64,000 nucleotides of DNA from an uncultured bacterium (lineage in GTDB: Bacteria; Patescibacteriota; Patescibacteriia; Patescibacteriales; UBA12465), in contig OW818634.1 of assembly GCA_942492765.1 (NCBI GenBank), forward strand, positions 6,627-70,626, in the 5' to 3' direction. Shown piece by piece: positions 8,306 through 49,637 of the stretch. A program made the translations under genes and the position numbers. Under the pieces are notes generated by a model. It was given only the letters and a program-made list of their open reading frames with translations. It was not told the DNA's origin and ran no database searches. The first letter of the stretch is position 1. Each line of letters opens with the position of its first letter.

Positions 8306-9760
8306 ATGGATATAGTGATAAATACAAGCAGACTGGAACAATTCTTAAGCTTGCCTCCGGACGAGATGCTTTGGGTTTTTATGGGTAATTTCGGCTGGCT
8401 GATCGTCGCCATCGTCTTCCTTTACGGAATGCGGGAGGTTTATCTTTTCTGGTTGAGGAACGAATGGGAAAAGAACCATAAGAGCCTGCTTCTGGCTGTC
8501 GATATCCCGAAAGGCAATGAACAATCTCCGAAGGCGGTCGAAAATATGTTCACCTATCTCGGCGGCGCCCATGGCTCGATCAATTTTTTTGAGAAATGGT
8601 TCGAAGGCAAATTTCAGAAAGCTTTCAGTTTCGAGATAGTTAGTCTTGAGGGTTATACGCAATTCCTTATCCGTACGCCCTTGGAATACCGTAATCTCGT
8701 GGAATCGGCGGTCTACTCGCAATATCCCGACGCCGAAATCTCCGAAGTCGATGATTATGTGAGTGACGTGCCTCATAAAGTGCCGGACGAAGAATATGAT
8801 CTCTGGGGGACGGAATTCATCCAGGCTAACGCCTGGCCTTATCCGATAAAATGTTATCAGGAATTCGAGCATCAGATGGGACCGAGCGAGACTCAGTTCA
8901 AGGATCCGATGGCGAGCTTGATGGATCTCTGCGGCTCTTTGCGCCAAGGAGAATATTTTTGGTTTCAGATCATCGTCATCCCGACGGGCTTCAGCTGGGT
9001 CAAGGATTCGGAGAAGGAGATCAATAGGATCTTAGGCAGGAAAGAGAAGGCTAAGCCAGGACTGGCCGCGAAAGGCGTCGTCGCGCTCGGCGAAGCGAGC
9101 GAGATATTCTATCCGATCTGGGGCGATATCGGACCGGCCAAGGAAGAGAAGGCCAAGTCCATGATGGAATTATCTCCGGGCGAGAAGCGCAAGGTCGAGG
9201 GCATCCAGCTTAAGGCCGGCAAGCTCGGTTTCGAAGCCAAGATCAGGGCTGTTTATATCGCTAAGAAAGAAGTCATGAATAAGGCGAAAGTCGCTAACGG
9301 CTTAGTCGGGTATATGAAGCAATTCTCATCCTTAGATCTGAATAATCTTAAGCCGGACGTAGACATGACTTTCACGAAGACGGTTTATTTTTTTACCGCG
9401 CCGCGCCTGTTAGAGAAGAAACGCAAGATTCTGCGTGCCTATATAAATCGGTCGGATAATCGAGGCCGGAGGCCGGGCTTATACAATATCGAAGAACTGG
9501 CGACTCTCTGGCATTTTCCAGTTGAAGCTAATGTCAAGGCGGCCATGATCCAGAAGGCGCCGGGACGGAAAGCTGACGCGCCGGCATCGCTGCCGATCGC
9601 TGAAGATAGGGCGGTCGAGATTCCGGATATTTTTAACGAACCCTTCGCTGCTAAATCGGCTGCAGCCGCATCGGGAATGGCCGTGTCATTTTCGGCTGAG
9701 ACTGCTAAAGATTTGACCGAGAAGAAGGCGACGCCGCCGGCTAATCTGCCCTTCGTTTAA
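8306..9760 (+). CDS. Hypothetical membrane-anchored protein (484 aa)
   Basis: There is a single N-terminal TM helix (WLIVAIVFLYGM), no known catalytic motifs, and a lysine- and alanine-rich C-terminus. Confidence 0.45.
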   Translation: MDIVINTSRLEQFLSLPPDEMLWVFMGNFGWLIVAIVFLYGMREVYLFWLRNEWEKNHKSLLLAVDIPKGNEQSPKAVENMFTYLGGAHGSINFFEKWFEGKFQKAFSFEIVSLEGYTQFLIRTPLEYRNLVESAVYSQYPDAEISEVDDYVSDVPHKVPDEEYDLWGTEFIQANAWPYPIKCYQEFEHQMGPSETQFKDPMASLMDLCGSLRQGEYFWFQIIVIPTGFSWVKDSEKEINRILGRKEKAKPGLAAKGVVALGEASEIFYPIWGDIGPAKEEKAKSMMELSPGEKRKVEGIQLKAGKLGFEAKIRAVYIAKKEVMNKAKVANGLVGYMKQFSSLDLNNLKPDVDMTFTKTVYFFTAPRLLEKKRKILRAYINRSDNRGRRPGLYNIEELATLWHFPVEANVKAAMIQKAPGRKADAPASLPIAEDRAVEIPDIFNEPFAAKSAAAASGMAVSFSAETAKDLTEKKATPPANLPFV

Positions 9761-9771
9761 TCATAACTCCC

Positions 9772-10953
9772 ATGAAAATAGGCATTGATGCCCGCTTCTA
9801 TGGCCCGATAGGGAAAGGTCTGGGCCGCTATACGCAAGAGGTGGTCGATAATATCATCAAGATAACGAGCACCGCCGAAGGTGAATCTTTCGAATACGTC
9901 ATCTTCTTGAGTCCCGGAAATTTCGATGAATTCGATTCTGGGCGTCTGGGCATCAAGAAAATCAAGCTTGATTGTCCTTGGTATGGCTGGAAAGAGCAGA
10001 TCTTGATGCCGTTTTATCTCTGGCGCGAAAAGCTGGATTTGATTCATTTTCCCCATTTCAATGTGCCGATACTCACGCCGGGGAAATTCGTCGTGACTAT
10101 CCATGATCTGATCTTGACCCATTTTCCGACCGTGCGGGCGACGACGCGCAGTCATTTTTTGTATTATCTTAAGAATTTCGCTTATCGTCTCGTCATCTTT
10201 TCCGCGCTGCGCCGCGCCCAGAAAGTCATCACCGTTTCTGAATTCACCAAGAAAGATATAGTCGATAAATTTGGTATCAAGCCGGAAAAGATCATAGTCA
10301 CCTATGAAGGCGTCGCTAATCTGGCTAAAGGGCGCGATTCCTTATTCGTTTCCAAGCTCGATAGCCAAGAGATATTGGCGCAATACCATATTCCGCAGAA
10401 TTTCTTGCTCTATGTCGGCAATGCTTATCCGCACAAGAACCTGGAGATATTGCTTCGGGTCTTCGGCCGCTTGCATGCCGAGCGCCATGATCTGCGCTTG
10501 GTGCTAGTCGGTAAGCCGGATTATTTTTATGAACGGGTCAAGGAGACGGCTCGAGCCCTGAACTTATGGCAGAAAGAGAATATCAATAGTCCGGTGATAT
10601 TTCCCGGCTATGTCCCGGACGCGCAGCTAGAAATATTATACGCGGAGGCGCGCGCTTATGTTTTCCCCTCGCTCTATGAAGGCTTCGGCTTGCCGCCCCT
10701 AGAGGCCATGGCTAAAGGCTGTCCGGTTCTTAGCTCTGATCGAGCTTCGCTGCCGGAAATTCTCGGAGCGGCCGCTGCTTATTTCGATCCGGAAGATGAA
10801 GAAGATATGGCCGCCAAGATAAAGGAAGTGCTGAGCGACGAGAAACTGCGCGCTGAGCTGATTGAACAGGGGTTGAAACAGGCGAAGAAATATAATTGGT
10901 GGGAGTGCGCTCGCGAGACCCTGGATGTCTATCGAGCCGCGCTGAAAAAATAA
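9772..10953 (+). CDS. Family 4 glycosyltransferase (GT-B, glycosyltransferase group 1)
   Basis: It carries the C-terminal EGFGLPPLEAMAKGCPV motif typical of GT4 (E-x7-E). Confidence 0.75.
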   Translation: MKIGIDARFYGPIGKGLGRYTQEVVDNIIKITSTAEGESFEYVIFLSPGNFDEFDSGRLGIKKIKLDCPWYGWKEQILMPFYLWREKLDLIHFPHFNVPILTPGKFVVTIHDLILTHFPTVRATTRSHFLYYLKNFAYRLVIFSALRRAQKVITVSEFTKKDIVDKFGIKPEKIIVTYEGVANLAKGRDSLFVSKLDSQEILAQYHIPQNFLLYVGNAYPHKNLEILLRVFGRLHAERHDLRLVLVGKPDYFYERVKETARALNLWQKENINSPVIFPGYVPDAQLEILYAEARAYVFPSLYEGFGLPPLEAMAKGCPVLSSDRASLPEILGAAAAYFDPEDEEDMAAKIKEVLSDEKLRAELIEQGLKQAKKYNWWECARETLDVYRAALKK

Positions 10954-10963
10954 GAATTTTTCA

Positions 10964-13507
10964 ATGGCTAATGACCAGAAGATACAAACGAATAACCCGG
11001 GCCTAGAGAGAGAGCGCTTCTCTAATTTTGTCGTAGATTTGCGCCGGATAGAGAAGCGGGCGGAAGCTGAAATCAAGAAAGAGGCCAAGATCAGCGCTGA
11101 CAAGGGAATGGAGATATTCAAGAAAGAGATGAAAGTCGCCAAGAAAAGATTCCAGATGATTCCGAACCTCTTGGCGCCCAGGAAGAGATATTCTTTTGCG
11201 CCCGCCCTAAGGAGCTTTTTCTCCGGTTGGCGCCTCTTTGCTTCCGACTGGCGTTTTTTCAAGAGTCGCCAGCCTGCTTGGATTGCGGAACTCGAAGCGC
11301 GCAAAGCGGCTTGGCAGAAGAATCTGCGCCTTAAGATCGGGCGCCTTAAGAGCGTAGCCCGAGATGGCGTTGCCAAAGACCGCCTGATAGCGATCGACAA
11401 AGCGGAAGCGCCCTGGTATCGCTCCGTCTTATATTTCTCCCTGATCCTCATCCTGATAATCTTGCCTTTCAAGATATTATCTGCGCTCGATATCCTTGAT
11501 TTTCAGAGCTTAGAAAACAGGATAATCAGCCGTTCTGAATTAGCCGTGAGCAGCTTGATGGCTGCGGCTGATTCCGTGTCCAAACTGGATATGAAAAGCG
11601 CTGATTCTGATTTTCAAGCGGCTGGAGCTAATTTTCTAGAAGCGCAGAATGATCTCAATAAGATCAATGATTCTATTTTGGCGCTCGCCTCTTTTTCGAG
11701 CGACCCCAAGATCAGACTGGCGGCGGAAAGCAAGAAGTTCTTAGCGGCGGGAGCGGCCGCCGCGTCTTTAGGTAGTAATCTAGTGCTCGCGACTGACAGC
11801 CTCTTCGCCGGCGATAAGGATGATTTCCGGTCTTCATTAGATAATTTTCTGGCTTATGGAAATTTAGCCGTGGCCGATGCCAAATCTTTGAAGAAGTCTA
11901 TAGCCAAGATAAATCCGGATAATCTCCCGGAAGCTTATCGGGCTAAGTTCGAATCTCTCAGCCAGCAGGCCGCTCTCTTATCGGATAATCTCGATAATTT
12001 CGTTTCTGCCGGCGCTAAGCTCAAGGAAGTTTTGGGATTAAGCCGAGATAAGAGATATTTATTAGTCTTTCAGAATAACGCGGAGATGCGCGCGAGCGGC
12101 GGCTTCTTGGGCAGTTATGCGCTCGTCGATATCAGGGGCGGTCGGATCAGCAATCTAGAAGTTCCCGGCGGCGGATCATATGATACTGAAGGCGGCATGA
12201 AAGTCCGGGTCGTCGCGCCTGAACCGCTTTGGCTAGTCAATCCTCTTTGGCATTTTTGGGATGCAAATTGGTGGCCGGACTGGCCGACAACAGCGAAGAA
12301 TCTCACCTGGTTCTATGAGAAGAGCGGCGGTCCGAGCGTAGACGGCGTTATCGGCGTCACGCCGACAGTGGTCGAGCGCTTATTGGAAATCACCGGTCCG
12401 ATCGATCTGCAGCAGGAATACGGCTTGACGATAGACAAGGATAATTTTTGGGAAACCGTCCAAAAGATTACTGAACAGAAGAACCTGGCTAAGACTCATC
12501 CGGAGGCCATCGTTGATATTCCGGCAACTTCGACAGCAGTGAAATCCGCCATCCCCTTAGAGCAGGACTTGGATAATAACGCCGGCAATAAGCCGAAGAA
12601 GATCATCGGCGACCTGCTGGCGAAGATATTGGAGACTCTGCCGCAGAAATTGGATCGGGATAATCTGATTAAGATAATCACCGTCTTCGAGGAGAATATG
12701 TCTGAGAAGCAGGTTTTGTTCTATTTTAGCGACCCGGCGCTTCAATCCGAATTCGCGAGCCGCAATTGGGCCGGAATCGTGCGTCCGACCGATAAGGATT
12801 ATCTGATGGTCGTCAATACGAATATCGCCGGTCAGAAATCGGATCGCTTGATGAGCGAGAAGATAGACTTGGCGAGCGAAGCTGGAACTGATGGTAGCGT
12901 CATCAATACTGTTACTATCACTCGGACCCATAACGGGCTGAAGAACGAAGCGCTGACCGGGGTGCGTAACGTCGATTGGATGCGCATCTATGTGCCGCAA
13001 GGCAGCGAACTTATCAGCGCGACTGGCTTTATCGCGCCAGACGCCAGGTATCTGCAAGAGAAGCCGGAGGCTGACTGGGAAAGGACGCCGCTCCTAGATA
13101 ATGAAGCGGCGGCAAAGACGGATAGCGCGACCGGCGTAAAGATTTATCAAGAGAATGGCAAGACTGTCTTCGCCAACTGGCTGATGGTCGATCCGGGGCA
13201 GACTGCGAGCGTAGTCATCAGCTATCGCCTGCCTTTCAATATCTTAAGCAAGAAAGCTGATGATAGCTGGCTGAAACGCTTGAATGGCTGGCTGGATGGG
13301 AATGCGCCTGACTTATTGCCTTATTCTCTCTTAGTGCAGAAGCAGCCAGGATCGCGTCCGAGCGAATTCACGAGCCGCCTGCGCTTGCCCGAAAATATAG
13401 GAGTCTTCTGGCGTTTCCCTGAAAACTTGGCTGGAAATAGCGGCTGGGAAATAAGCGCGCCCCTTGATGCTGACAAGTATTATTCGCTCCTCTTAGAAAA
13501 AAAATAA
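10964..13507 (+). CDS. Large DUF4012-like envelope protein (847 aa) with an N-terminal membrane anchor
   Basis: The block QNNAEMRASGGFLGSYA...VTPTVVERLLEITGPI resembles DUF4012, and there is a TM segment near residue 160. Confidence 0.5.
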   Translation: MANDQKIQTNNPGLERERFSNFVVDLRRIEKRAEAEIKKEAKISADKGMEIFKKEMKVAKKRFQMIPNLLAPRKRYSFAPALRSFFSGWRLFASDWRFFKSRQPAWIAELEARKAAWQKNLRLKIGRLKSVARDGVAKDRLIAIDKAEAPWYRSVLYFSLILILIILPFKILSALDILDFQSLENRIISRSELAVSSLMAAADSVSKLDMKSADSDFQAAGANFLEAQNDLNKINDSILALASFSSDPKIRLAAESKKFLAAGAAAASLGSNLVLATDSLFAGDKDDFRSSLDNFLAYGNLAVADAKSLKKSIAKINPDNLPEAYRAKFESLSQQAALLSDNLDNFVSAGAKLKEVLGLSRDKRYLLVFQNNAEMRASGGFLGSYALVDIRGGRISNLEVPGGGSYDTEGGMKVRVVAPEPLWLVNPLWHFWDANWWPDWPTTAKNLTWFYEKSGGPSVDGVIGVTPTVVERLLEITGPIDLQQEYGLTIDKDNFWETVQKITEQKNLAKTHPEAIVDIPATSTAVKSAIPLEQDLDNNAGNKPKKIIGDLLAKILETLPQKLDRDNLIKIITVFEENMSEKQVLFYFSDPALQSEFASRNWAGIVRPTDKDYLMVVNTNIAGQKSDRLMSEKIDLASEAGTDGSVINTVTITRTHNGLKNEALTGVRNVDWMRIYVPQGSELISATGFIAPDARYLQEKPEADWERTPLLDNEAAAKTDSATGVKIYQENGKTVFANWLMVDPGQTASVVISYRLPFNILSKKADDSWLKRLNGWLDGNAPDLLPYSLLVQKQPGSRPSEFTSRLRLPENIGVFWRFPENLAGNSGWEISAPLDADKYYSLLLEKK

Positions 13508-20236: not shown

Positions 20237-21253
20237 ATGAATCTAGAAAAATTGAACGACATCCTGAAGGACGAGCCGAAGTTCCGCTATGTCCAGATAA
20301 ATAAGGCGCTCTGGCAGGATCACATCTCTTCCTGGGAAGAAGCGTCCAGCTTGCCTAAGGCGCTGCGCGAAACCTTGGCAGCCGCCTGTCCTTTAGAGAT
20401 AAAGGCTGAGCTTTTCAAATCATCGGGCGGACCGAAGAGCTTAAAAGCCCTGATCACTTTAGAAGATGGAGAAGTGATCGAGACCGTGCTTATCCGCCAG
20501 AAAGAAGCGCGCAATACGGTTTGCGTCTCGTCTCAGGTCGGTTGTCCTTTGGGCTGCGCTTTCTGCGCGACCGGAATGAATGGTTTCAGCCGCAGCCTGA
20601 CGGCTGAAGAGATCATCATGCAGGTTTCATATTGGGCGCGTTATCTGAAGCAAGAGGGCAAGAGCGAGAAGATCGATAATCTAGTCTTCATGGGCATGGG
20701 TGAACCGTTCTTGAATTATAATGAGTTCATCAAAGCCGTGAAGTTCTTGAATAATCCGGAGACTTTCAATATCGGCGCCCGCCGCATTTCTGTCTCGACT
20801 GCCGGCATCACTGAAGGCATCAAGCGCCTAGCTGGCGAGCAATTGCAGATCAATCTGGCGATATCGCTTCACGCCGCTTTCGATTCCTTGCGCCAATCGC
20901 TAATGCCGATTGCCAAGAAATATTCGCTCCATGATATTTTTCGCGCCGTCGATAATTATATCACCAAGACCGGCCGCCGCGTCATGTTCGAGTACCTGAT
21001 GATCAAGAAGACGAACGATTCTGATAAGGATGCGCTGGAATTAGCCGCGCTCATGAAGAAGCCTTTGTATATGGTCAATCTCATCCCCTATAACGCCACG
21101 GGAAAATTCAAGCCGTCTGACCGCGAACGCGTCGATGCTTTCAAGAAGATTCTGGAAGATAACGGCGTGCCGGCGACTGTCCGTTTAAGTTTCGGCTCTG
21201 GCATCGATGCCGCCTGCGGCCAGCTGAAAGGGAAGATGAAGAAGAGATCGTAA
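20237..21253 (+). CDS. rlmN: 23S rRNA/tRNA m2A methyltransferase, radical SAM (RlmN/Cfr family)
   Basis: It has the CxxxCxxC motif in the context VSSQVGCPLGCAFCATG, and the RlmN-typical domain order. Confidence 0.8.
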   Translation: MNLEKLNDILKDEPKFRYVQINKALWQDHISSWEEASSLPKALRETLAAACPLEIKAELFKSSGGPKSLKALITLEDGEVIETVLIRQKEARNTVCVSSQVGCPLGCAFCATGMNGFSRSLTAEEIIMQVSYWARYLKQEGKSEKIDNLVFMGMGEPFLNYNEFIKAVKFLNNPETFNIGARRISVSTAGITEGIKRLAGEQLQINLAISLHAAFDSLRQSLMPIAKKYSLHDIFRAVDNYITKTGRRVMFEYLMIKKTNDSDKDALELAALMKKPLYMVNLIPYNATGKFKPSDRERVDAFKKILEDNGVPATVRLSFGSGIDAACGQLKGKMKKRS

Positions 21254-21273
21254 GATAAGAGCATGGAAAATAT

Positions 21274-21879
21274 ATGAGTAAATTTTTTATTAAGCTTGAT
21301 CGCATCGCCGCCTGGGTATTAATGATGGTCATAATTATTTATGCTATCAGCGGCTATGGTATGACCAGGGGGCTGATTGACCGCGATCTCGCGCGCGTTT
21401 TGCATCTGTCTTGGCTCGGCGGCGTCGGCATTGTTGCTTTTATTATCCATACCGCTTGCGGTTTTTTCCGATTCTTTTGCCGTAAATGCATCTGGAATAT
21501 CTGGACAAAATGTTTTCTGGTTGCCTTTTACGTCTTATTCGCCGGATTTTTCCTTTACGTTCACTTTTTCTATACCCCGTCTTATGATGTTTTGTCAGCA
21601 TCGAATAATCAAGCCGCGGCGGTTTCCACAAATTCAAGTTTAGTCGCGCCGACAGAAACCAAGGTTTTTACGGCTGCAAGCTTAGCTTATTATGACGGTT
21701 TGGATGGCCGGCCGGATTATGCCGCTGTCAGCGGCGTCGTCTATGACGTTTCTTCGGCTTTTAGGAATGGCGATCACCATGGCTATTCCGCGGGCGTGGA
21801 TCTGACTGATCTTTTTTATACGCAGCATCAGTCCCAGCTTCTTAGCCGCTACCCGATCGTCGGCGCTTATCAGAAATGA
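21274..21879 (+). CDS. Membrane protein with a C-terminal cytochrome b5-like / MAPR-type heme/steroid-binding domain
   Basis: N-terminal TM helices are followed by FTAASLAYYDGLDGRPDYAAVSGVVYDVS..., which resembles MAPR/cyt-b5-like domains. Confidence 0.55.
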   Translation: MSKFFIKLDRIAAWVLMMVIIIYAISGYGMTRGLIDRDLARVLHLSWLGGVGIVAFIIHTACGFFRFFCRKCIWNIWTKCFLVAFYVLFAGFFLYVHFFYTPSYDVLSASNNQAAAVSTNSSLVAPTETKVFTAASLAYYDGLDGRPDYAAVSGVVYDVSSAFRNGDHHGYSAGVDLTDLFYTQHQSQLLSRYPIVGAYQK

Positions 21880-22415
21880 AGCCAGACTTTCCTTACATAA
21901 TAAAGACAGTTCGCCGCTCCCGCCATCTGCGTTTAGCCGTGCATCATGATGGCCGAATCGTCGTTACCAAGCCATATCTCGTCAGCAAGGCCTCGGCTGA
22001 GGCTTTCCTGCTTTCTAAGATCGGTTGGGTCGAGGCGGCTTTAGAACGCTTTAAGAAGATGCCGGCGCCCTTGGCGCGGCCGCATGATCATGAGGATTAT
22101 TTGAAGAATAAGCAGGCAGCGCATGTCTTCGTTCTCAGGCGCTTGGAGCATTTCAATCAGATATATGATTTTAAATACAGCAAGATCAGCATTCGTGATC
22201 AGAAGACGCGCTGGGGTAGTTGTTCGAAGAGCGGCCATCTTAATTTCAGTTATCGCCTGTTAGAGCTGTCGCCGGCCGCCGCTGATTATATCATTGTCCA
22301 CGAGCTCTGTCATCTGAAAGAATTCAATCATTCGGCGCGTTTCTGGGCGCTGGTCGCTAAGACCGTTCCAGATTATGAAGAGCGGCGGAAAGAGTTGAGA
22401 GGGAGAGTTATTTAA
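21876..22415 (+). CDS. YgjP-like (DUF45/M48-type) zinc metallopeptidase
   Basis: HELCHLKEFNHSARFW contains the HExxH-type signature of the DUF45/SprT-like family. It overlaps the upstream gene by 4 nt. Confidence 0.65.
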   Translation: MKPDFPYIIKTVRRSRHLRLAVHHDGRIVVTKPYLVSKASAEAFLLSKIGWVEAALERFKKMPAPLARPHDHEDYLKNKQAAHVFVLRRLEHFNQIYDFKYSKISIRDQKTRWGSCSKSGHLNFSYRLLELSPAAADYIIVHELCHLKEFNHSARFWALVAKTVPDYEERRKELRGRVI

Positions 22416-22416
22416 G

Positions 22417-22445
22417 TTGACACTTTCTCTCTTTTTTGTTAAATT
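22417..22445 (+). promoter_or_regulatory. Promoter for pyrF-pyrE (ttgaca, 17 nt spacer, TGn-taaatt extended -10)
   Basis: Hexamers read directly from the sequence. It lies at the left edge of the AT-rich island. Confidence 0.5.
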
Positions 22446-22521
22446 AATTTGAACATTTTGTTCGCTATTTTGCACGTTAATAATTAAACAAATGTAGTAT
22501 TAACCTAAAAACCGATTAGTC

Positions 22522-23982
22522 ATGAGCTTTAATGAAAAATTACGTCAGAAATGGAGCGAAGGTAAATTTCTTTGCTTAGGTTTGGATAGTGACCGCCGCA
22601 AACTCCCAAAAGGTTTATCGCGTAACGATGAGCCCTCCAAGGTTCTAGAGTTTAATCAAGCGATTATCAATAATACGCACGATATTGTTGCTGCGTATAA
22701 GCCAAACTTCGCATTTTATGAAGATTTGGGGCATGATGGTATTTTTATTCTGCAAGAAACTATTAAGCACATTCGCAGAGTCAACGATACCATCCCGATT
22801 ATTCTTGATTTTAAGCGAGGAGATATCGGTAATACTAATTTAGGTTCTATCAACCTAGCTTTTAATGAGTGGGATGTAGACGCAGTAACCGTATCGCCTT
22901 ATATGGGACGAGAATCATTGGCTCCTTTTCTCGCTAATCCAGATAAAGGGATAATTGTTATCTGCAAAACTTCTAATCCTGGTTCTGGGGAATTTCAGGA
23001 TTTACGCACGCCCGAAGGCTTAATTTATGAAGTAGTGGCAAAAAATGTTTCTCATCAGTGGAATGACAAGAATAATTGTGCCCTAGTCGTCGGCGCTACT
23101 TATCCTGAAGAGCTTCGAAAAGTACGCAATATTTCTGGAAATATGACGATATTGATTCCAGGAATCGGTAAGCAGGGCGGTGATTTAAAAGCTAGTGTTG
23201 CCGCTGGTCTAAACGCTAAGAACAATGGAATTATCATCAACTCTTCGCGAGAAATTTTATTTGCATCCAATGATGATGACTTTGCTCAAAGAGCTCGAGT
23301 TATAGCTTTTGAAACTGATGCTAAAATCAGACAAGCTGTGGCCGAAGTCAAGATTGAAAGACAACGGGATGTTATGGCTATAATGGAAAGAACCGGAGCG
23401 ATGGTCACTAATAGTCATATTGTTTATACTTCTGGTAAACATGGCCGGGAATATATCAATAAAGATGCCGTTTATCCCCACGGAGATTTTATTTCTGACT
23501 TATGCCAAAGAATCGCTGCTTATTTCGTTGATGATGATATCCAAGTGGTGGTTGGTCCGGCGACCGGAGGCATCGTTCTTTCTCAATGGGTAGCAAAGTA
23601 TCTAAGTGCATCAAGCTCTCACAAGGTATTGTCGGTTTATGCGGAAAAAGAAGGCGATTCTTTCGTTATCAAACGTGGTTACGAAAAGTTTATTCCTTAT
23701 TATCGCGTTCTCGTGGTGGAGGATGTATTAAATACTGGCGGTTCCGCCGGGAAAGTAATTGATGCTGTCAGGAAACTCAAAGGAGAGGTTATTGGTTTGG
23801 GTGTTTTATGTAACCGCGGCGGAGTTAAAGCAGAACAGTTTAATTTAGGAGAACTTTATGCTTTAACAAATCTAGATATGGAATCTTGGGAAGAAAAAAA
23901 TTGCCCTTTATGTAAGGACAATATCCCTATAAATACCCAGGTTGGCAAAGGGCGAGAATATTTAGCAAATGGAAATAGGTAA
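22522..23982 (+). CDS. pyrFE: Bifunctional orotidine-5'-phosphate decarboxylase (type 2, N-terminal) / orotate phosphoribosyltransferase (C-terminal) fusion
   Basis: The N-terminal ~280 aa resemble a type-2 OMP decarboxylase (KLCLGLD..., DFKRGDIGNT). The C-terminus carries the PRTase P-Rib-PP motif VLVVEDVLNTGGS. The gene is about 39% GC against about 50% for its flanks. Confidence 0.7.
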   Translation: MSFNEKLRQKWSEGKFLCLGLDSDRRKLPKGLSRNDEPSKVLEFNQAIINNTHDIVAAYKPNFAFYEDLGHDGIFILQETIKHIRRVNDTIPIILDFKRGDIGNTNLGSINLAFNEWDVDAVTVSPYMGRESLAPFLANPDKGIIVICKTSNPGSGEFQDLRTPEGLIYEVVAKNVSHQWNDKNNCALVVGATYPEELRKVRNISGNMTILIPGIGKQGGDLKASVAAGLNAKNNGIIINSSREILFASNDDDFAQRARVIAFETDAKIRQAVAEVKIERQRDVMAIMERTGAMVTNSHIVYTSGKHGREYINKDAVYPHGDFISDLCQRIAAYFVDDDIQVVVGPATGGIVLSQWVAKYLSASSSHKVLSVYAEKEGDSFVIKRGYEKFIPYYRVLVVEDVLNTGGSAGKVIDAVRKLKGEVIGLGVLCNRGGVKAEQFNLGELYALTNLDMESWEEKNCPLCKDNIPINTQVGKGREYLANGNR

Positions 23983-24026
23983 TTTGTAGATGCTAATGAA
24001 AGTAAAAGGCTGTCCTTAAAGACGGC

Positions 24027-24058
24027 CTTTTTTATTGGCATCGCCCCGTCTTTATAGC
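24027..24058 (+). terminator. Rho-independent terminator after pyrFE
   Basis: The hairpin ggctgtcc...gacggcc (one G-U pair) is followed by ttttttatt. Confidence 0.6.
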
Positions 24059-24111
24059 TCCATATCCTTTTTCTTGCTATAATATCCTTATAATTAATTT
24101 ATTATAATATT

Positions 24112-24702
24112 ATGTTTACTTTGCCTAAATTGCCTTATGAGCTAGCCGCCTTAGAGCCGCACATGTCGGCTAAGACTTTAGAATTCCATTACGGCAAGCA
24201 TCATCAGGCCTATATCGATAATCTCAATAAACTAATTACCGGGACAGACTTGGAAAAAGAAACTTTGGAAAATATTATCATGGTTGTCGCGAACAATCCG
24301 GAGAAAGCGAGCATCTTTAATAACGCCGCTCAAGCTTATAACCATGATTTTTTCTGGAAAGGCTTGCGCCCGGCCGACGGCATGATCGAGCCGGCGCCGG
24401 TTTTGCTGGAAGCCATCAATAAAAGCTTCGGTTCTCTGGGAAATTTTTATGGCGAGTTCAAGACGGCTGCGACCGGAGTATTCGGCAGCGGCTGGGTCTG
24501 GCTAGTCAAGGACGGAGAGGTCTTGAAAATTATGAAGACCGCCAATGCTGATACGCCCCTAGCTCATAATCTCCGCCCGCTTTGGTCTCTCGATGTCTGG
24601 GAGCACGCGTATTATCTCGACTATCAGAATCGTCGCGCTGATTTTATCGAAGCGGTTCTGCGCAATCTCGTCAATTGGGAATTCGTCGCTGCTAATTTGT
24701 AG
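24112..24702 (+). CDS. sod: Fe/Mn superoxide dismutase
   Basis: The N-terminus LPYELAALEPHMSAKTLEFHYGKHH and the C-terminus DVWEHAYYLDYQNRR are canonical for the SOD_Fe family. Confidence 0.9.
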   Translation: MFTLPKLPYELAALEPHMSAKTLEFHYGKHHQAYIDNLNKLITGTDLEKETLENIIMVVANNPEKASIFNNAAQAYNHDFFWKGLRPADGMIEPAPVLLEAINKSFGSLGNFYGEFKTAATGVFGSGWVWLVKDGEVLKIMKTANADTPLAHNLRPLWSLDVWEHAYYLDYQNRRADFIEAVLRNLVNWEFVAANL

Positions 24703-24727
24703 TCATTGATAACTTTCTCGATATATT

Positions 24728-25399
24728 ATGTATAAGAATCCTTATGCCAAGCTGAAGCCGTCCAGCCGCCGACCCTATACCGAAATATACCTTATCCGCC
24801 ATTGCCATCCTGATTATGCTCAGGAGAAGAAAGTGGGCGAATATAACATGCCTTTATCAAGGGCCGGCTTGAAGCAGCGGAAATATTTGACTGAAAAATT
24901 GTTGACCCTGAAGATCGATAAGGTTTACGCGAGTAGTTTAGTGCGGGCTCAGGAAACCGCCGCGCTCTACTTGGAAAAGACCGGCAAGAAATTGAATATT
25001 GATGAAAGGCTTGATGAGATCGATTGGAAAGACTGGTACCGCCTCAAGTATTTCAATATGACGGAAAAGACGAGGAGCAAGAAGCTGAAGCGCCATCAGA
25101 CCCTAGATAGGGAACTGGACAAGCTCCAGACTGTCGCTCGCCGCGCGGTCTCCGATTTGTTCCATAGTAATCGCGGCCAGAAGCTGGCAATCTTCTCGCA
25201 CGGAAATTTCATCCGCGCCCTCTTGACTGGGATATTGAACGCCGATGTCATCGGCTTCCTGTCTCTGGAAATATTCCAGTCGTCAGTCAGTAAGATCGTT
25301 ATCGATCGCGACGGCTATATCAAGATCAGCTTCATCAATGACGCCGATCATCTGCCATCGCCGCCGACCGAAGACTTGTATATAACTTTAGCTGATTAA
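24728..25399 (+). CDS. Histidine phosphatase family protein (phosphoglycerate mutase-like)
   Basis: It has the RHG catalytic motif in IYLIRHCHPDY. Confidence 0.6.
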   Translation: MYKNPYAKLKPSSRRPYTEIYLIRHCHPDYAQEKKVGEYNMPLSRAGLKQRKYLTEKLLTLKIDKVYASSLVRAQETAALYLEKTGKKLNIDERLDEIDWKDWYRLKYFNMTEKTRSKKLKRHQTLDRELDKLQTVARRAVSDLFHSNRGQKLAIFSHGNFIRALLTGILNADVIGFLSLEIFQSSVSKIVIDRDGYIKISFINDADHLPSPPTEDLYITLAD

Positions 25400-25408
25400 G
25401 AAACCATT

Positions 25409-26923
25409 ATGAAGATTCTCGCATCATCAAGAGCGCTCAGGCTTATCTCCGGCCTATTCCTGGCTAGCCTTATTTTTTCGGGCATCGCCCTGGAAGCCGC
25501 CCCGGCCGTGGCCGCGACTAATCTTAACGGCCGCATCTTGCTTCAAGTCGAAGCTCATGGCGAAGCCTGGTATGTCAATCCGGTTAACGGTTATCGTTAT
25601 TATCTCGGCCGGCCTGATGACGCCTTCAACGTCATGCGTTCGCTCGGCTTAGGCATAACGAATGCCGACACGGCTAATTTTAAGGTTAATGGCGCACCTT
25701 TGCGTCTTTCGGGTCGCATCTTGCTCCAAGTCCAGGATAAGGGGCAGGCTTATTACGTGAATCCGCTCAATCGGAAATTATATTATCTCGGCCGGCCGAC
25801 TGACGCCTTTAACGTCATGCGCTCGCTCGGCCTGGGTATCACGAATGCCGATCTGATAAAGATCAGGATAGCCTCGGTCGGCGGAACTAGCACGAACGCG
25901 TCGACGACTAGCGCCAGCCTCGATACTCCGCTAGCTTTCAATTTCAAATATAAGACTAATAGCTATACCGTCAATCAGAATTTTTCTTCGGTCCTTTATA
26001 ATTCCTACAAGTCTTCGACAAAAGTTTATTCTTATTCCGGGGCGGCTGTTTCAGACGCGTCTTTGCGGGAATCCTTCTACGGCTTATTTTTTAACGTTAA
26101 AGCTGGAGACACTTCTCTCAGTGATCTGATTTATAAGTTGAAGGCGACCGCGCTTAGCAATAATTGGACGGATGACGAGACTTTGGAATTTACGCTCGCC
26201 CTCGTGCAGTTTATCCCTTATGATAGCGCCAAATTAGCAGCCGGTAATAACCGCAACAATAATCCCTACTATCCTTACGAGACGCTCTACCTAGATAAAG
26301 GGGTCTGCTCTGACAAGACTTTCCTGGCTGTCGCCTTATTGCGTAAATTAGGTTATGGTGCAGCCATCCTTGATTTTCCGACAGCGAACCATAGCGCGGT
26401 CGGCATCGCTTGCCCGACTGATCAATCTTTGAACGGCACCGGATATTGCTATGGCGAGACTACGAATTATTTTCCGCTCGGCGTCGTGCCGCCTAGCCTC
26501 AGCTCCGGCCAAGCGCAAGCTGGCACCGATGAGTTCACTGGCCTTTTTGACGCGACCCATCTTGGAGCCATAGAAATATATCAGAAGACAAGCGGTAAGC
26601 TTTATTACGGAGTGGCCGCGACGCGCGCGAAAGTCGCATTCCTAAAGGCGGCTAAAGATTATTTGAATTCCCAGAGCCCGATTCTGGATGCTCAAGACGC
26701 AGCCCTGAAGACTCAGGAAGCGGAAGTCAGCGCCCTCAAGTCCCAGATGGATGCTTATTATGATAGCGGCCAGATATCTCAATATAACGCCTTAGTGGCG
26801 ACTTATAATGATATGGTCAATAAGTATAATACGGACCTGGGCGCTTATAAGGCGCTAGTGAGCGATTATAATCAGAAGGTGAGCGATTTTAATAAGTCGG
26901 TCAAAGATTTCTATCAAAAATAG
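25409..26923 (+). CDS. Secreted protein with two tandem ~50-aa N-terminal repeats, a transglutaminase-like cysteine protease core and a C-terminal coiled coil
   Basis: A signal peptide is followed by the duplicated block RILLQV..YYLGRP.DAFNVMRSLGLGITNAD. The Cys region GVCSDKTFLAVALLRKLGY and the His in ANHSAVG resemble the transglutaminase-like catalytic core. Confidence 0.5.
   Translation: MKILASSRALRLISGLFLASLIFSGIALEAAPAVAATNLNGRILLQVEAHGEAWYVNPVNGYRYYLGRPDDAFNVMRSLGLGITNADTANFKVNGAPLRLSGRILLQVQDKGQAYYVNPLNRKLYYLGRPTDAFNVMRSLGLGITNADLIKIRIASVGGTSTNASTTSASLDTPLAFNFKYKTNSYTVNQNFSSVLYNSYKSSTKVYSYSGAAVSDASLRESFYGLFFNVKAGDTSLSDLIYKLKATALSNNWTDDETLEFTLALVQFIPYDSAKLAAGNNRNNNPYYPYETLYLDKGVCSDKTFLAVALLRKLGYGAAILDFPTANHSAVGIACPTDQSLNGTGYCYGETTNYFPLGVVPPSLSSGQAQAGTDEFTGLFDATHLGAIEIYQKTSGKLYYGVAATRAKVAFLKAAKDYLNSQSPILDAQDAALKTQEAEVSALKSQMDAYYDSGQISQYNALVATYNDMVNKYNTDLGAYKALVSDYNQKVSDFNKSVKDFYQK
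25527..25860 (+). repeat. Intragenic tandem duplication (2 units of about 165 bp, about 80% identical) encoding the repeated N-terminal module
   Basis: Aligned by eye: ggccgcatcttgcttcaagtcgaagct... versus ggtcgcatcttgctccaagtccaggat... Confidence 0.6.
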
Positions 26924-45345: not shown

Positions 45346-45380
45346 TAAAAAGGCGAAATATTATTTCGCCTTTTGTTTTT
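45346..45380. terminator. Bidirectional rho-independent terminator (aggcgaaata/tatttcgcct with a T-run) between convergent genes
   Basis: A perfect 9-10 bp inverted repeat, with an A-run on its 5' side and a T-run on its 3' side. Confidence 0.7.
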
Positions 45381-45963
45381 AGAGAAACCCATTCCGGCCG
45401 ATTCTTCCGACGGCTTTAATTAGAGGATAGCGGCCATTCTTGTGAAAGGGGCCGGTAGATCCGGTGTTCGTGTTGAGCCAGGTGCCTAAATTCGGCCATT
45501 GCTCGAGGAAGGATTCTTCTCTTTCAGCCTCCGTCAGGTAATAGCTGCGATGGGCATAGAATGGTCCGGATAATCCGGAGAAGATAGCCAAGGAAATCGC
45601 TTCACTAAAATTTAAGCCCGCGCTCTGATCTTTTTTATATTTAGTCCCTTTTATGAGACTGACGCCAATCAGATAATAAGGCTCATCGAGAGAGTTGTCT
45701 TCACGATATTGGCTCTCGTCGATTTGGAGATCTCGGCCGTGCTTAGCTGTAAAAATAGTTTTGCAGAGGTCTAGATAGGGCCTGGGCAAGACGGGGAGTA
45801 GGGGGAAGTGGAAGTCGCTGGCTAACCCGAGGCAGCCGGATAAGACTTTGTCTCTCATATCCTCTAGTTCCCAGATGACTTCTTCTGGACATCCATAGCA
45901 GGATAGATTCGCCAATTGACCTTCATAGGTCTGTTTAAGAAGTTCCGCTTGTGGTTTCCACAT
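45379..45963 (-). CDS. Hypothetical protein (194 aa)
   Basis: An ORF divergent from the CYTH operon. No motif was recognised. Confidence 0.4.
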   Translation of the reverse strand: MWKPQAELLKQTYEGQLANLSCYGCPEEVIWELEDMRDKVLSGCLGLASDFHFPLLPVLPRPYLDLCKTIFTAKHGRDLQIDESQYREDNSLDEPYYLIGVSLIKGTKYKKDQSAGLNFSEAISLAIFSGLSGPFYAHRSYYLTEAEREESFLEQWPNLGTWLNTNTGSTGPFHKNGRYPLIKAVGRIGRNGFL

Positions 45964-46114
45964 GGTTTCTTGATTTTTTATTTATTGTTTGGAAAGACCT
46001 GATTATGCTTAGAAATTATCATTAAGCTGTGTTGCTGTCAACTTTACTTTTTGGCTATTTTAGGTTATATTTTAACTTAGTAATAAAAATTAGTTAAGAT
46101 AATTTCTAATCATT

Positions 46115-46639
46115 ATGAGTCATGAAATAGAAATGGAAAAAACTTATTTGGCAAAATTTTTGCCGGAAGGCTTGAAAGACTGTCGGTCGAAAGAGATACT
46201 TGATATCTATGTCCCCAAAGGCAGCGCTCACGCCAAATTGAGAATAAGAAAGAGCGGTGAGACTTATACTATCACCAAAAAGAATCCGGTCGGCGCCAGC
46301 GCCTCTATTCAGAATGAAGAAAATATCGCCATCCTGCCGGAAGAATTCGAAGCTTTTGCCGGCATGGACGGAAACAGGATGCGGAAGATAAGATATTATT
46401 ATCCTTATCAAGGATTGACGGCCGAAATTGACGTTTTTCTGGAACAGCTGGAAGGATTGGTCTTGGTCGACTTTGAATTCAATGAAGAGAAAAAACTCAA
46501 TGATTTTATCATGCCTGATTTCTGCCTAGCCGATGTCACGGAGGAAGAAGAGATAGCCGGCGGAGTCTTATGCCATCACTCATTCGCCTCTCTTGAAGAG
46601 ATGCTCGAGAGGTTCTCTTATAAGAAGATTTCTCTATGA
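46115..46639 (+). CDS. CYTH-like domain protein (triphosphate tunnel metalloenzyme; class IV adenylate cyclase or thiamine triphosphatase fold)
   Basis: The N-terminal HEIEMEKTYLAKFLP matches the CYTH ExExK signature. Acidic EID/DFEF strands occur near the C-terminus, and the protein is about 174 aa. Confidence 0.55.
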   Translation: MSHEIEMEKTYLAKFLPEGLKDCRSKEILDIYVPKGSAHAKLRIRKSGETYTITKKNPVGASASIQNEENIAILPEEFEAFAGMDGNRMRKIRYYYPYQGLTAEIDVFLEQLEGLVLVDFEFNEEKKLNDFIMPDFCLADVTEEEEIAGGVLCHHSFASLEEMLERFSYKKISL

Positions 46640-47748
46640 ATCATCTTAAGATAAGAGAATTAAGACTGGTCATGACCGGCGATTGTCCTTATAGTTGCCG
46701 CTATTGCAATCTCTATCATAAAAAATTATTAGAATCCGGCCGCCTGTCCCGACACCGCTTCGATAAAGAATATCGGATCGGGAATGAAAGCTTCGGGTTG
46801 CTGGCGGATAATAGCGGTCCGGCCTTTTCTCTGAAAGACTATGAATTTCTGTTCTTAATTTTGTCTTCGAGGTTCGGGCTCGAAGACATAACCTTTACCG
46901 GCGGAGATCCTTTTTTGAATCCTGATATCCGTAAAGTTATCGATTCCGCTGATAAGATGGGGGTGCGGACTACCGCCATCACCAAGGGGGCTCCCTTATT
47001 CGCGATCAAGAGCCGGCGTGACGCCAAGAAAAGATTGGGTAATCTTTCTAGAATAATCTTTTCTCTTGATACTTTTGACGCGAAAGAGCACACCAAGAAT
47101 AATCTGCCGCTTCTGAAGACCGAGATAGCTATCGGTTTTTTGCCGAAGACTCTGAGATTGATTGAAGCACTGGCGGGCTACGGCTATAATATCGAGATTA
47201 ACTCTGTCATCAAGCCCGGCTCGCTCGCTTCTAAAAAAAGTCTGGGCCGGGTTATGGCCAGAATCAGGCAGATGGTAGATTTTTGTTTGAAAAATAAAAT
47301 AAAGAAAGTGAAGTTTCTCGAGCTGGATTCCAAGGATACGCTGGGCGCACCTTATATAGAGGATCATTTTCGGGTCATGATAGCCGCCGGCCTGTTCGCC
47401 GGTTTGAAATTTCAGCCCAGCCGTTTACCGGTTGACTATAAGAAGGGGGCCGTCAGGATAGGCCGGGTCGCCAGAGAGGCAAGTAGGAGTCATGATATGC
47501 ATATCATGGCGTATCGGACGCATTGTCCCACGACTTTTCTGAATAGGCGCGGCCGGAAAAAATGCGAGTTTTCTCAAGGGGGCGAATTGCATCTTGATTT
47601 CAAGGGCAGGTCTTTCCTGTGCCAGCGCGATAATCATTTTAAATCGATCGATATCTTTGATGCCGTGAAAAGTCGGAATATAAAGGAACTAGCTAGCCGG
47701 CTTCGGGAGATAAAAGAAGCGGTCAGGGATCAGAAATGTAAGTTTTAA
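46636..47748 (+). CDS. Radical SAM enzyme (MoaA/BtrN-like) with an additional C-terminal Cys-rich region (possible auxiliary cluster)
   Basis: CPYSCRYC (CxxxCxxC) is at residues 16-23, followed by the GGDPFL SAM-binding motif and SLDTFD. C-terminal cysteines are at HCPTT, KKCEF and FLCQRD. The ATGA overlap with the CYTH gene indicates translational coupling. Confidence 0.7.
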   Translation: MNHLKIRELRLVMTGDCPYSCRYCNLYHKKLLESGRLSRHRFDKEYRIGNESFGLLADNSGPAFSLKDYEFLFLILSSRFGLEDITFTGGDPFLNPDIRKVIDSADKMGVRTTAITKGAPLFAIKSRRDAKKRLGNLSRIIFSLDTFDAKEHTKNNLPLLKTEIAIGFLPKTLRLIEALAGYGYNIEINSVIKPGSLASKKSLGRVMARIRQMVDFCLKNKIKKVKFLELDSKDTLGAPYIEDHFRVMIAAGLFAGLKFQPSRLPVDYKKGAVRIGRVAREASRSHDMHIMAYRTHCPTTFLNRRGRKKCEFSQGGELHLDFKGRSFLCQRDNHFKSIDIFDAVKSRNIKELASRLREIKEAVRDQKCKF

Positions 47749-47752
47749 TCAT

Positions 47753-48982: not shown

Positions 48983-49003
48983 TGAATTTTATCAGCGCTA
49001 ATG

Positions 49004-49032
49004 AAAAAGGACCATTGTTTAATGGTCCTTTA
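49004..49032. terminator. Bidirectional terminator hairpin (aggaccatt-gttt-aatggtcct) between the convergent DegT and GreA-like genes
   Basis: A perfect 9-bp inverted repeat flanked by A-runs and T-runs. Confidence 0.65.
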
Positions 49033-49636: not shown

Positions 49637-49637
49637 T

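Follow-up and report, generated by a model that had tools for sequence, protein, structure and literature searches.

The locus described here raises three linked questions: what the product of a two-domain gene does, how its halves came to be joined, and how and when the gene reached a place where its base composition differs from that of its neighbours. The gene, pyrFE, lies in a stretch of 64,000 nucleotides, hereafter called the window. In an earlier note, it had been described from the letters alone as a fusion of a type-2 OMP decarboxylase with an orotate phosphoribosyltransferase, and its AT-richness had been ascribed to recent horizontal acquisition. Matches to the ribosomal protein S2 of the window at 83-86% are named Falkowbacteria, and others 'Patescibacteria group'; by this marker, the host is placed among the Patescibacteria (CPR), with Candidatus Falkowbacteria as nearest named relatives.

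The gene is a single uninterrupted open reading frame of 486 aa, and Pfam and NCBIfam domains were recognized in both its halves, as expected from the description. Since pyrFE is intact in four independent assemblies (the window, L084, L001 and L002), the single frame is not an assembly artefact. Together with a promoter, a conserved leader and a terminator, it forms a self-contained cassette of about 1.64 kb, whose features are reported in Table 1. The left border was set at the first base past the ygjP stop codon, and the right border at the point where homology to the sod promoter of the relative L085 resumes.

Table 1. Features of the pyrFE cassette and of its flanking genes, in window positions.
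Feature	Position	Strand	Basis
Left flank, YgjP-like gene, host-typical composition, GC3 0.57	21876..22415	+	composition, synteny
Whole inserted cassette (promoter, leader, pyrFE, terminator)	22416..24055	+	from ygjP stop codon to sod promoter
Sigma-70-type promoter-like site, TTGACA-17-TAAATT, TG ahead of the -10 hexamer	22417..22445	+	10/12 consensus positions
AT-rich conserved leader, ~75 nt	22446..22521	+	invariant columns across four lineages
Palindrome GAACAttttTGTTC, candidate operator	22451..22463	.	just 3' of the -10 hexamer
pyrFE coding sequence, 486 aa + stop codon	22522..23982	+	ORF, Pfam/NCBIfam domains
PyrF domain, putative type-2 OMP decarboxylase, residues 1-273	22522..23340	+	TIGR02127, motifs, Foldseek
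Junction AEVKIERQR, residues 274-282	23341..23367	+	P0033 alignment end, TIGR01367 start, modelled helix
PyrE domain, putative Thermus/HP1257-type orotate phosphoribosyltransferase, residues 283-486	23368..23979	+	TIGR01367, PRPP loop, Foldseek
Intrinsic-terminator-like hairpin + T tract	23989..24042	+	core GC-rich ~24006-24029, then TTTTTTATT
Right flank, Fe/Mn superoxide dismutase (sod), host-typical composition, GC3 0.56	24112..24702	+	

Within the N-terminal half, the Pfam OMPdecase domain was found at residues 17-252, and the subfamily model TIGR02127 (pyrF_sub2) matched residues 3-258 along positions 1-260 of its 261, with a score of 237.2 bits against a cutoff of 110.6. K60 lies within YKPN (residues 59-62), and the motif D96-F-K98-R-G-D101 is encoded at 22807-22824; among 45 fused homologues K60, D96 and K98 never vary, while at least 90% have D101. 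From established knowledge of OMP decarboxylases, we take K60 and the Asp-x-Lys-x-x-Asp residues to be catalytic. The predicted TIM-barrel fold was matched by Foldseek to 3qw3, with a target-normalised TM of 0.92 and an rmsd of 2.6-2.7 angstroms. Family score, motifs and fold all point to a type-2 OMP decarboxylase, for which the corresponding activity is predicted.

The C-terminal half contains a Pfam Pribosyltran domain (PF00156, residues 328-433, 36.4 bits against a cutoff of 26.3) and the PRPP motif already reported for it, VLVVEDVLNTGGS, at residues 396-408 (23707-23745), which marks it as a type I phosphoribosyltransferase; D401 of this loop is kept in at least 90% of the fused homologues. 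The best match among PRT-family models is TIGR01367 (pyrE_Therm), which covers residues 283-472 along positions 1-183 of its 187. Since its 116.2 bits fall below the curated equivalog cutoff of 150.25, the half is not formally assigned to this family, and specificity for orotate is proposed here from three observations: TIGR01367 is its best PRT model, it is fused to PyrF, and its fold matches 4paw and the OPRT domain of 3qw4. The score would also agree with a PRT-fold domain specific for another base, or with a regulatory role of the PyrR/PurR kind, in which case the protein would be no UMP synthase; weak matches to PurR, Apt and Hpt models in the same half and a flexible-loop sequence (AEKEGDSF...KRGY) unlike that of classical PyrE go in the same direction. 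Such a role is nevertheless very improbable, because all other PRT-family models reach at most 45 bits, and because stand-alone homologues, 55-61% identical, carry the name orotate phosphoribosyltransferase in their source records and are located directly downstream of pyrF in many phyla. The domain also aligns with the OPRT domain of the Leishmania UMP synthase. By fold it corresponds to 4paw (target-normalised TM 0.83), an entry deposited under the title 'hypothetical protein HP1257' but listed as orotate phosphoribosyltransferase in the sequence file of the PDB. Finally, a fused homologue adjoins pyrD in L092.

The AlphaFold2 model of the 486-aa protein has a mean pLDDT of 94.4 and a pTM of 0.89, and places the junction inside a long helix (residues 254-290). 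As judged by family membership, the PyrE domain would convert orotate and PRPP into OMP, which the PyrF domain would decarboxylate to UMP. The protein is thus predicted from its sequence to be a bifunctional OMP decarboxylase-orotate phosphoribosyltransferase, and a single transcription unit would lead from orotate to UMP.

The two genes had been said to be normally separate in bacteria. The fusion is real, as shown above; its rarity is another matter, since a dedicated model (NF004034) exists for such proteins, at least about 50 fused PyrF-PyrE sequences were found in our searches, and cyanobacterial cases have been described. The fused architecture is in fact already known from other organisms: the OMPDC-then-OPRT order, recognized in one polypeptide by Pfam and NCBIfam in the window, occurs in kinetoplastids, oomycetes, diatoms and some cyanobacteria, and known UMP synthase fusions have been treated as independent events (PMC2705460). 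The kinetoplastid enzyme of Leishmania donovani (3QW4), with the same N-terminal OMP decarboxylase and C-terminal OPRT, is the best match in PDB both by sequence (E 3.7e-55, residues 15-444) and by structure across the two domains (Foldseek E 4e-33). However, identity is only 29-30%, the domains are placed differently (rmsd of 8-10 angstroms over the whole chain), the OPRT domain of the window protein is of the Thermus/HP1257 type, and the kinetoplastid protein is that of a eukaryote, located in glycosomes (PMC7052976). The cyanobacterial PyrF/PyrE protein (NF004034, PRK05500) is bacterial, shares both activities and their order with the window protein and is similar in size (478 versus 486 aa), but its model matches only residues 1-253 of the window protein (model positions 1-249 of 478), with 182.7 bits against a cutoff of 656. 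Since the match stops after the PyrF half, the PyrE half belongs to another subfamily, and the protein is not a member of NF004034.

Fused proteins from other Patescibacteria (P0004-P0031 and others) share PF00215 and PF00156 with the window protein and align with it over the full length. Nevertheless, they are at most 53% identical to either half and form no supported grouping with the window clade; their genes are found in other contexts, adjoining pyrD in L092 and within a ribosomal-protein operon in L093, and P0032 has the reverse domain order. The closest proteins are instead stand-alone ones, a type-2 PyrF (TIGR02127; P0033, 63% identity) and a Thermus-type PyrE (TIGR01367; P0121, 61%). 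In phylogenies of the separate halves, as had been proposed as a check, the window clade is monophyletic in both trees with a bootstrap of 100, and in the PyrF tree stand-alone P0033 is its sister (bootstrap 96); the deeper nodes of both trees have values below 10 and point to no donor.

Stand-alone pyrF and pyrE genes in this order, either 3-51 bp apart or with a 4-nt overlap, are common in CPR and in other phyla. A pyrF gene followed by a separate pyrE at a distance of 3-51 bp was found in L004-L007, L014, L021, L024 and L038, in the same frame in all of them except L014 and L024, and the two genes overlap by 4 nt in L091. Among the matches listed by a GTDB genome scan, most 'full-length' ones consist of two such adjacent genes, rather than of fusions. 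Compared with these pairs, the window gene has lost the stop codon between the halves, and its nine-residue junction is accommodated within one long helix. Stand-alone P0033 aligns up to residue 281 and TIGR01367 begins at residue 283, and we infer that AEVKIERQR derives from a read-through spacer. Because the halves are nearer to stand-alone proteins than to other fusions, and in-frame or overlapping pyrF-pyrE neighbours are common, the fusion most likely arose when a pyrF gene, translationally coupled to the pyrE next to it, lost its stop codon, probably independently of the other CPR, cyanobacterial and kinetoplastid fusions.

The base composition of the locus was then computed over its whole length. 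The GC content of 22416-24060 is 0.393, against 0.493 for 20237-22415 and 0.484 for 24112-26923, in good agreement with the hand counts from which an AT-rich island had been proposed; composition is not uniform. The deficit falls almost wholly on third codon positions, GC1 (0.515) and GC2 (0.363) being typical of the window. At 0.324, the GC3 of pyrFE lies 3.6 standard deviations below that of the remaining 53 ORFs of the window, which average 0.572 (sd 0.069; z = -3.6). The noted preference for ggt and tta over ggc and ctg is also borne out by the fractions in pyrFE and elsewhere (GGT 0.38 versus 0.12, GGC 0.21 versus 0.61, TTA 0.41 versus 0.16, CTG 0.03 versus 0.25), and Karlin's codon-usage difference (B), 0.49 against a median of 0.30, is the highest among longer ORFs. 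An equally low GC content is reached by 4.7% of gene-sized segments of the window, for example in 29660-37556 and 48350-49350. AT-rich codons are not an intrinsic property of fused pyrFE genes: the gene in L092 has a GC3 of 0.59 with flanks at 0.42-0.55, that in L093 has 0.41, as its flanks, and unfused pairs likewise equal or exceed their flanks. A 'pyrimidine-sparing' mRNA was also considered and discarded, as third positions are rich in T (0.41) and pyrimidine content is not lowered.

In the window, L084, L001 and L002, the cassette occupies one and the same site, which lies between ygjP and sod; the upstream neighbour differs in L001. In L085 (GCA_964470695.1) ygjP is directly followed by sod after an 87-bp spacer, in L087 (JGI 3300037810) rlmN is directly followed by sod, and in L089/L090 (L089 being GCA_000999715.1) an unrelated gene separates rlmN from sod; none of these carries pyrFE at the syntenic site. 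The backbone sod-HisPhos-DUF553-S2-Tsf-PSP1 is common to these outgroups and the window, and the sod promoter regions of occupied and unoccupied loci are homologous. Carriers sharing one site, together with three more distant relatives in which the site is empty or different, indicate a lineage-specific insertion, and the acquired nature of the gene claimed in the earlier note is upheld to this extent; gain rather than loss is inferred by parsimony on the three outgroup loci, within a region that is itself rearranged. Two other segments, 29660-37556 and 45379-49726, are likewise missing between the same backbone genes in outgroups (the second as judged against L089/L090 only) and are also AT-richer. 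No integrase or transposase was found among the neighbouring ORFs, and no tRNA gene in the whole 64-kb window. The borders show neither a target-site duplication nor terminal inverted repeats, but only short AT-rich chance repeats.

The claim that acquisition was recent does not survive the comparison of carriers. Proteins encoded by the flanks are 76-99% identical across the four lineages, and the pyrFE product of the window is 91%, 78% and 73% identical to those of L084, L001 and L002, with 71%, 40% and 36% identity at four-fold sites; at these sites, the four carriers have diverged by 0.38-1.68 substitutions per site. Nucleotide identity between the window and L084 is 0.84-0.90 in gene and flanks alike, and in a quartet test the pyrFE topology did not conflict with that of the flanks. 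Divergence of the gene thus equals or exceeds that of its flanks, and its acquisition is not recent. Later spread of the cassette among the four lineages by recombination was discarded on the same grounds, divergence of the gene being no lower than that of the flanks, and the quartets being in agreement.

Three readings of the locus were weighed. Recent horizontal acquisition by this genome, with AT-richness as the fresh signature of a foreign donor, is what codon usage, the presence of an own promoter and terminator, and the absence of the gene from the syntenic site in more distant relatives would suggest; it can hardly be maintained, given the shared site in four lineages, the co-divergence and the compatible topologies just described. 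In the reading which we prefer, and to which a probability of roughly 70% is assigned, the cassette would have entered the ancestor of the small clade formed by the window, L084, L001 and L002, in the variable interval that separates rlmN from sod, and would have been inherited vertically thereafter, its gene being probably an independent fusion produced by stop-codon loss. The AT-rich third positions resemble those of low-GC relatives and of possible low-GC CPR donors; the contig of P0033, the sister of the PyrF half, has 37.7% GC and a GC3 of about 0.33-0.40.

Composition also fits another history, in which pyrFE would be an ancestral resident from a low-GC era, lost from this site in L085, L087 and L089, that escaped a later rise in GC3. 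Within the clade pyrFE has a GC3 of 0.32-0.355, whereas backbone values are about 0.51-0.65 in all but one of its lineages; in L002, the earliest-branching, low-GC lineage, they are 0.38-0.45, and in L085 and L087 0.33-0.44, so that the gene stands near what a resident would have had. Moreover, its third positions have not drifted to the GC3 of about 0.58 of the present host backbone: low GC3 has lasted through 1.3-1.7 substitutions per four-fold site, longer than simple neutral drift towards host composition can explain, and at these sites the flanks share an AT-to-GC change, while those of pyrFE turn over with no net increase. If evolution were neutral, towards an equilibrium GC of 0.58, the four-fold sites of the window gene would have to have started from a negative GC value, and an old transfer not yet at equilibrium thus does not explain the lasting low GC3. 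A resident gene would require that the force raising GC3, be it selection on core genes or biased gene conversion in them, spares pyrFE in the window, L084 and L001; the lack of mobility signatures would be natural for it. Against this stand the several losses demanded by three outgroup loci without the gene, the low identity (50-63%) of the nearest homologues beyond the clade, the two further AT-richer segments missing in outgroups, a pattern typical of accessory DNA, and the lack of any known reason why one enzyme gene should escape a genome-wide trend. A resident origin is accordingly regarded as unlikely, and the old insertion followed by vertical descent is retained.

The control elements of the cassette are conserved along with pyrFE, even in L001 with its other upstream neighbour. 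The promoter and terminator of its own, attributed to the gene in the earlier note, were recovered as predicted sites. TTGACA and TGTTAA(A/G)TT are kept in all four loci. The terminator hairpin has a dG of -28.4 kcal/mol (z = -6.1), none of 200 shuffles being as stable, and its stem is kept in all loci with paired changes (GGCTGTCC/GGACGGCC versus GGCTATCC/GGATAGCC). Many columns of the leader are invariant, in lineages with only 36-40% identity at four-fold sites; its predicted fold is no better than random (z = 0.0), and it contains no obvious Shine-Dalgarno sequence. Searches of leader and terminator against Rfam gave no family at gathering score, and a riboswitch or other known RNA was discarded, the sub-threshold matches being chance-like and falling on the terminator. 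The palindrome has the same letters in every lineage but L001, where one position of the central spacer is changed and the arms are intact; it is the sole conserved pairing of the leader, and no covariation was seen in it among the four lineages. GAACA-N3-TGTTC is therefore a candidate operator, to which a protein may bind. A regulon defined by it was not supported, as the 64-kb window holds one perfect copy only, with a one-mismatch copy at chance level.

CPR/Patescibacteria are considered dependent on other cells for their nucleotides. The earlier suggestion that pyrFE may compensate for a missing de novo pyrimidine pathway is compatible with a published account of incomplete UMP synthesis in CPR classes outside Microgenomatia (PMC9166423); in the literature, no paper linking CPR and orotate was found. 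A more speculative and rather doubtful extension is that fused pyrFE genes are single-gene, self-expressed 'orotate-to-UMP' cassettes which recurrently form and move among ultra-small CPR bacteria without pyrB/C/D. In the present lineage, the cassette would then be controlled by a repressor acting at GAACA-N3-TGTTC, and its AT-rich codons would be actively maintained, rather than being the fading mark of an import. If this were true, an episymbiont would make all its pyrimidines from orotate leaked by its host or neighbours.

The finding is real but modest, and does not overturn current views. It offers a clean natural example of a bifunctional enzyme formed from adjacent, translationally coupled genes, apparently several times. 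The GC3 of pyrFE, kept at about 0.32-0.355 while substitutions exceeded one per synonymous site, adds a minor but helpful observation to the debate on whether mutation bias, or selection or biased gene conversion, is the cause of high GC3. Lineage-specific gain of a one-gene module leading from orotate and PRPP to UMP would be a concrete case of reduced genomes patching their metabolism, and would make orotate a candidate for a metabolite that is exchanged.

The protein encoded by pyrFE, the fused pyrF-pyrE gene, is on record in identical form (P0001), and its close relatives are 91% (P0241, locus L084), 78% (P0002, L001) and 73% (P0003, L002) identical to it. Each of the three loci has sod-HisPhos immediately after the gene. 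The contigs of L084 and L001 reach further, and there the rest of the backbone follows (a DUF553-like gene, rpsB and tsf). The upstream neighbour is ygjP in L084 and L002 also, and a different gene in L001. More distant relatives with the same backbone were fetched by using ribosomal protein S2. Only an 87-bp spacer separates ygjP from sod in L085, with no pyrFE between them; sod comes right after rlmN in L087; and L089 and L090, both from Falkowbacteria, have an unrelated opposite-strand gene between rlmN and sod. By flanking-protein identities, the window, L084, L001 and L002 cluster together (the ingroup) and L085, L087 and L089 fall outside; every sampled ingroup member thus carries pyrFE, and none of the three outgroups has it at this site. 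Loci with and without the insert share a homologous sod promoter region, which sets the right border at about 24050; the left border is the first base past the stop codon of ygjP. These borders enclose an inserted unit of about 1.64 kb, in near-exact agreement with 22416-24060 as given in the earlier note. A search of the cassette borders gave no transposase, integrase, tRNA gene, target-site duplication or terminal inverted repeat.

Nucleotide identity between the window and L084 is 0.84-0.90 in pyrFE, and the same over 16 kb of flanks. Four-fold sites of pyrFE are 71%, 40% and 36% identical to those of L084, L001 and L002, respectively, saturation being about 29%, and quartet bootstraps of both pyrFE halves favour the same grouping as the flanks. 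Because of this co-divergence and quartet agreement, the compared sequences indicate that the cassette has been inherited vertically, together with its neighbours, since the ingroup ancestor. Recent horizontal acquisition, as proposed in the earlier note, therefore stands in part: the insertion is supported by the empty sites in three outgroups, but its recency is contradicted by divergence in step with the flanks.

Elements of the pyrFE cassette and other segments of the window
Feature	Position	Strand	Description
High-identity tract	21177-21926		window vs L084 95-98% nucleotide identity; 84-90% elsewhere
ORF in this tract	21274-21879		201 aa
Promoter-like site	22417-22445	+	TTGACA-17-TAAATT, upstream TG; rated good
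Palindrome GAACAttttTGTTC	22451-22463		GAACA-N3-TGTTC; right after the -10 hexamer of pyrFE in each of the four lineages
pyrFE	22522-23982	+	single ORF, 486 aa
Strong hairpin, then T tract	23989-24042	+	dG -28.4 kcal/mol, z = -6.1
PSP1-GAPDH segment	29660-37556		2490-aa ORF (GC3 0.40), its end overlapped by a 149-aa ORF (GC3 0.31)
Cyclophilin-cysteine desulfurase segment	45379-49726		five ORFs, GC3 0.44-0.53

The promoter and terminator attributed to the gene are recognizable as the promoter-like site and the hairpin, both putative signals read from sequence. Conservation extends over the promoter, the invariant palindrome and a large part of the 75-nt leader, also in L001, despite near-saturated synonymous sites. 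No structure was predicted for the leader (z = 0.0), and it matched no Rfam family. At a reasonable guess, the palindrome is a candidate protein operator; its spacing is unlike that of the Gram-positive LexA box, GAAC-N4-GTTC. Neither tRNA genes nor Rfam families at gathering score were found in window positions 1-64000.

The GC content of 22416-24060 is 39.3%, against 49.3% in the preceding and 48.4% in the following genes; these values agree with the hand counts (about 39% and 50%) by which an AT-rich island had been noticed. Other low-GC stretches exist in the window, 4.7% of gene-sized windows being equally low. Only the synonymous positions of pyrFE deviate: GC1 (0.515) and GC2 (0.363) have usual values, and GC3 is 0.324 (z = -3.6), the other 53 window ORFs averaging 0.572 (sd 0.069). 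The described preference for ggt/tta over ggc/ctg codons is visible in the codon shares of pyrFE and the comparison genes (GGT 0.38 vs 0.12, GGC 0.21 vs 0.61, TTA 0.41 vs 0.16, CTG 0.03 vs 0.25). GC3 of pyrFE is 0.32-0.355 across all four ingroup lineages; that of the backbone is 0.51-0.65 in the window, L084 and L001, 0.38-0.45 in L002, 0.33-0.44 in L085 and L087, and about 0.5 in L089.

The AT-richness of pyrFE is not simply a foreign signature yet to fade, because neutral drift towards 0.58 GC would require a negative ancestral GC for the window gene. By rough F81-corrected distances, about 1.3 substitutions per four-fold site separate pyrFE of the window from that of L001, and these sites show turnover with no net gain of G/C; in the flanks, G/C states are common to the window and L001 often where L002 has A/T. 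Possibly, the high GC3 of the backbone is upheld by something besides mutation bias, without effect on pyrFE; another possibility is that the pyrFE codons are under constraint. An AT bias inherent to pyrFE genes was ruled out by fused homologues in L092 (GC3 0.59, flanks 0.42-0.55) and L093 (0.41, like its flanks), and by the unfused pyrF/pyrE pairs of nine further loci, whose GC3 is inside or near the range of the flanking genes.

That pyrF and pyrE are fused was confirmed by Pfam, which matched OMPdecase at residues 17-252 and Pribosyltran at residues 328-433 of the one ORF; the PRPP motif VLVVEDVLNTGGS reported for the PyrE half occupies residues 396-408. The N-terminal half scores 237 bits with NCBIfam TIGR02127 (pyrF_sub2, type-2 OMP decarboxylase; cutoff 110.6). 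For the C-terminal half the best model is TIGR01367 (pyrE_Therm), at 116 bits, under its cutoff of 150.25, a score far exceeding that of every other NCBIfam phosphoribosyltransferase model. The alignment of 45 fused homologues shows K60 and D96-x-K98-x-x-D101, the OMP decarboxylase signature, and likewise the PRPP loop, to be invariant or nearly so. From this alignment AlphaFold2 gave a confident model (pLDDT 94.4, pTM 0.89), whose best structural match for both domains is the Leishmania donovani UMP synthase 3qw4 (E 4e-33). Target-normalised TM is 0.92 for the PyrF domain against 3qw3 and 0.83 for the PyrE domain against 4paw, deposited as Helicobacter hypothetical protein HP1257, its chain being named orotate phosphoribosyltransferase in the PDB sequence file. 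Given the signature residues, the PRPP loop and the structural matches, PyrFE most likely converts orotate and PRPP to OMP and then UMP.

Proteins named Candidatus Falkowbacteria share 83-86% identity with ribosomal protein S2 of the window, and many closer matches carry only the name 'Patescibacteria group'. Falkowbacteria belong to GTDB class ABY1, among the classes reported incomplete for UMP synthesis. No other pyr genes are visible among the annotated ORFs of the 64 kb, and in its own genome PyrFE may complete a de novo pathway or may serve orotate salvage. Among the freshwater CPR genomes of one survey, a complete UMP synthesis seems to be encoded in Microgenomatia alone, while the step from UMP to CTP is common (PMC9166423). 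Completion of the de novo pathway and orotate salvage probably both exist among fused genes, since the L092 homologue adjoins pyrD in another CPR lineage. In that locus (9525-12586), the fused gene (P0011) is preceded by a small GIY-YIG ORF and directly followed by the dihydroorotate dehydrogenase gene, with a Y1 transposase and an AT-rich restriction-modification cluster nearby. In L093 (GCA_964456475.1, 7584-11971, another CPR), the fused gene (P0018) lies within the ribosomal-protein operon between rplB (L2) and rpsS (S19), a junction normally highly conserved; alongside it are three ORFs, unannotated or LamG-like, and a diacylglycerol kinase.

About 50 proteins found by searches have both domains. 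Each half of PyrFE is at most 53% identical to the halves of other fused proteins; stand-alone proteins are closer (PyrF P0033, 63%; PyrE P0121, 61%). Neighbour-joining trees of both halves recover the window clade as monophyletic (bootstrap 100). In the PyrF tree, P0033 is its sister (bootstrap 96), and deeper nodes lack support. A GTDB scan matched both halves in ten loci among the matches listed. Eight of them (L004-L007, L014, L021, L024, L038) have separate pyrF and pyrE ORFs, in that order and 3-51 bp apart, six of the eight in the same frame; in L035 (Ktedonobacteraceae) the two genes, also separate, stand the other way round, with pyrE first, and in L059 one ORF covers the match. In L091, the gene for P0121 and the pyrF upstream of it share 4 nt. 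In PyrFE, PyrF homology stops at about residue 281 and PyrE homology begins at about 283, the junction AEVKIERQR lying within one long predicted helix (residues 254-290). In the simplest reading, an adjacent pyrF-pyrE pair would have been fused by loss of the pyrF stop codon, independently of other fusions. P0032 (source name Candidatus Nomurabacteria) has the opposite order (PyrE residues 2-205, PyrF 236-481), that of animal and plant UMP synthase, so both orders occur within Patescibacteria.

Two further segments are absent between the same backbone genes in outgroups (the second by comparison with L089/L090 only) and AT-richer than the backbone; AT-richness is a well-known tendency of accessory genes. 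The PSP1 and GAPDH genes are neighbours in L085, L087 and L089, and the segment between them looks like a second lineage-specific insertion; its long ORF resembles an Rhs/Tc polymorphic toxin, judging from its SpvB, TcdB_toxin_midN, FG-GAP, RHS-repeat and CBM_4_9 domains. The other segment, encoding a radical SAM protein, a DegT-type aminotransferase and three proteins with no Pfam hits, may be a third insertion, because its flanking genes adjoin in L089 and L090. The 201-aa ORF of the high-identity tract, which gave no hit in a Pfam scan, is 97% identical between the window and L084 at four-fold sites, the proteins differing at 6.5% of residues, a pattern suggesting a recent recombination tract or unusual constraint.

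Fused proteins with the OMPDC-OPRT order are known from kinetoplastids, oomycetes, diatoms and some cyanobacteria and are regarded as products of independent fusions (PMC2705460; PMC7052976). PyrFE shares the architecture of the cyanobacterial enzyme (NCBIfam NF004034) but is not a member, since it matches this model over the PyrF half only and scores 183 bits where the cutoff is 656. The description that fits it best is a further independent case of a fusion type already known, here with a Thermus-type PyrE domain and in a CPR genome. Among the side results, the clean run of empty and occupied sites and the lasting AT-richness of the codons are the most useful.
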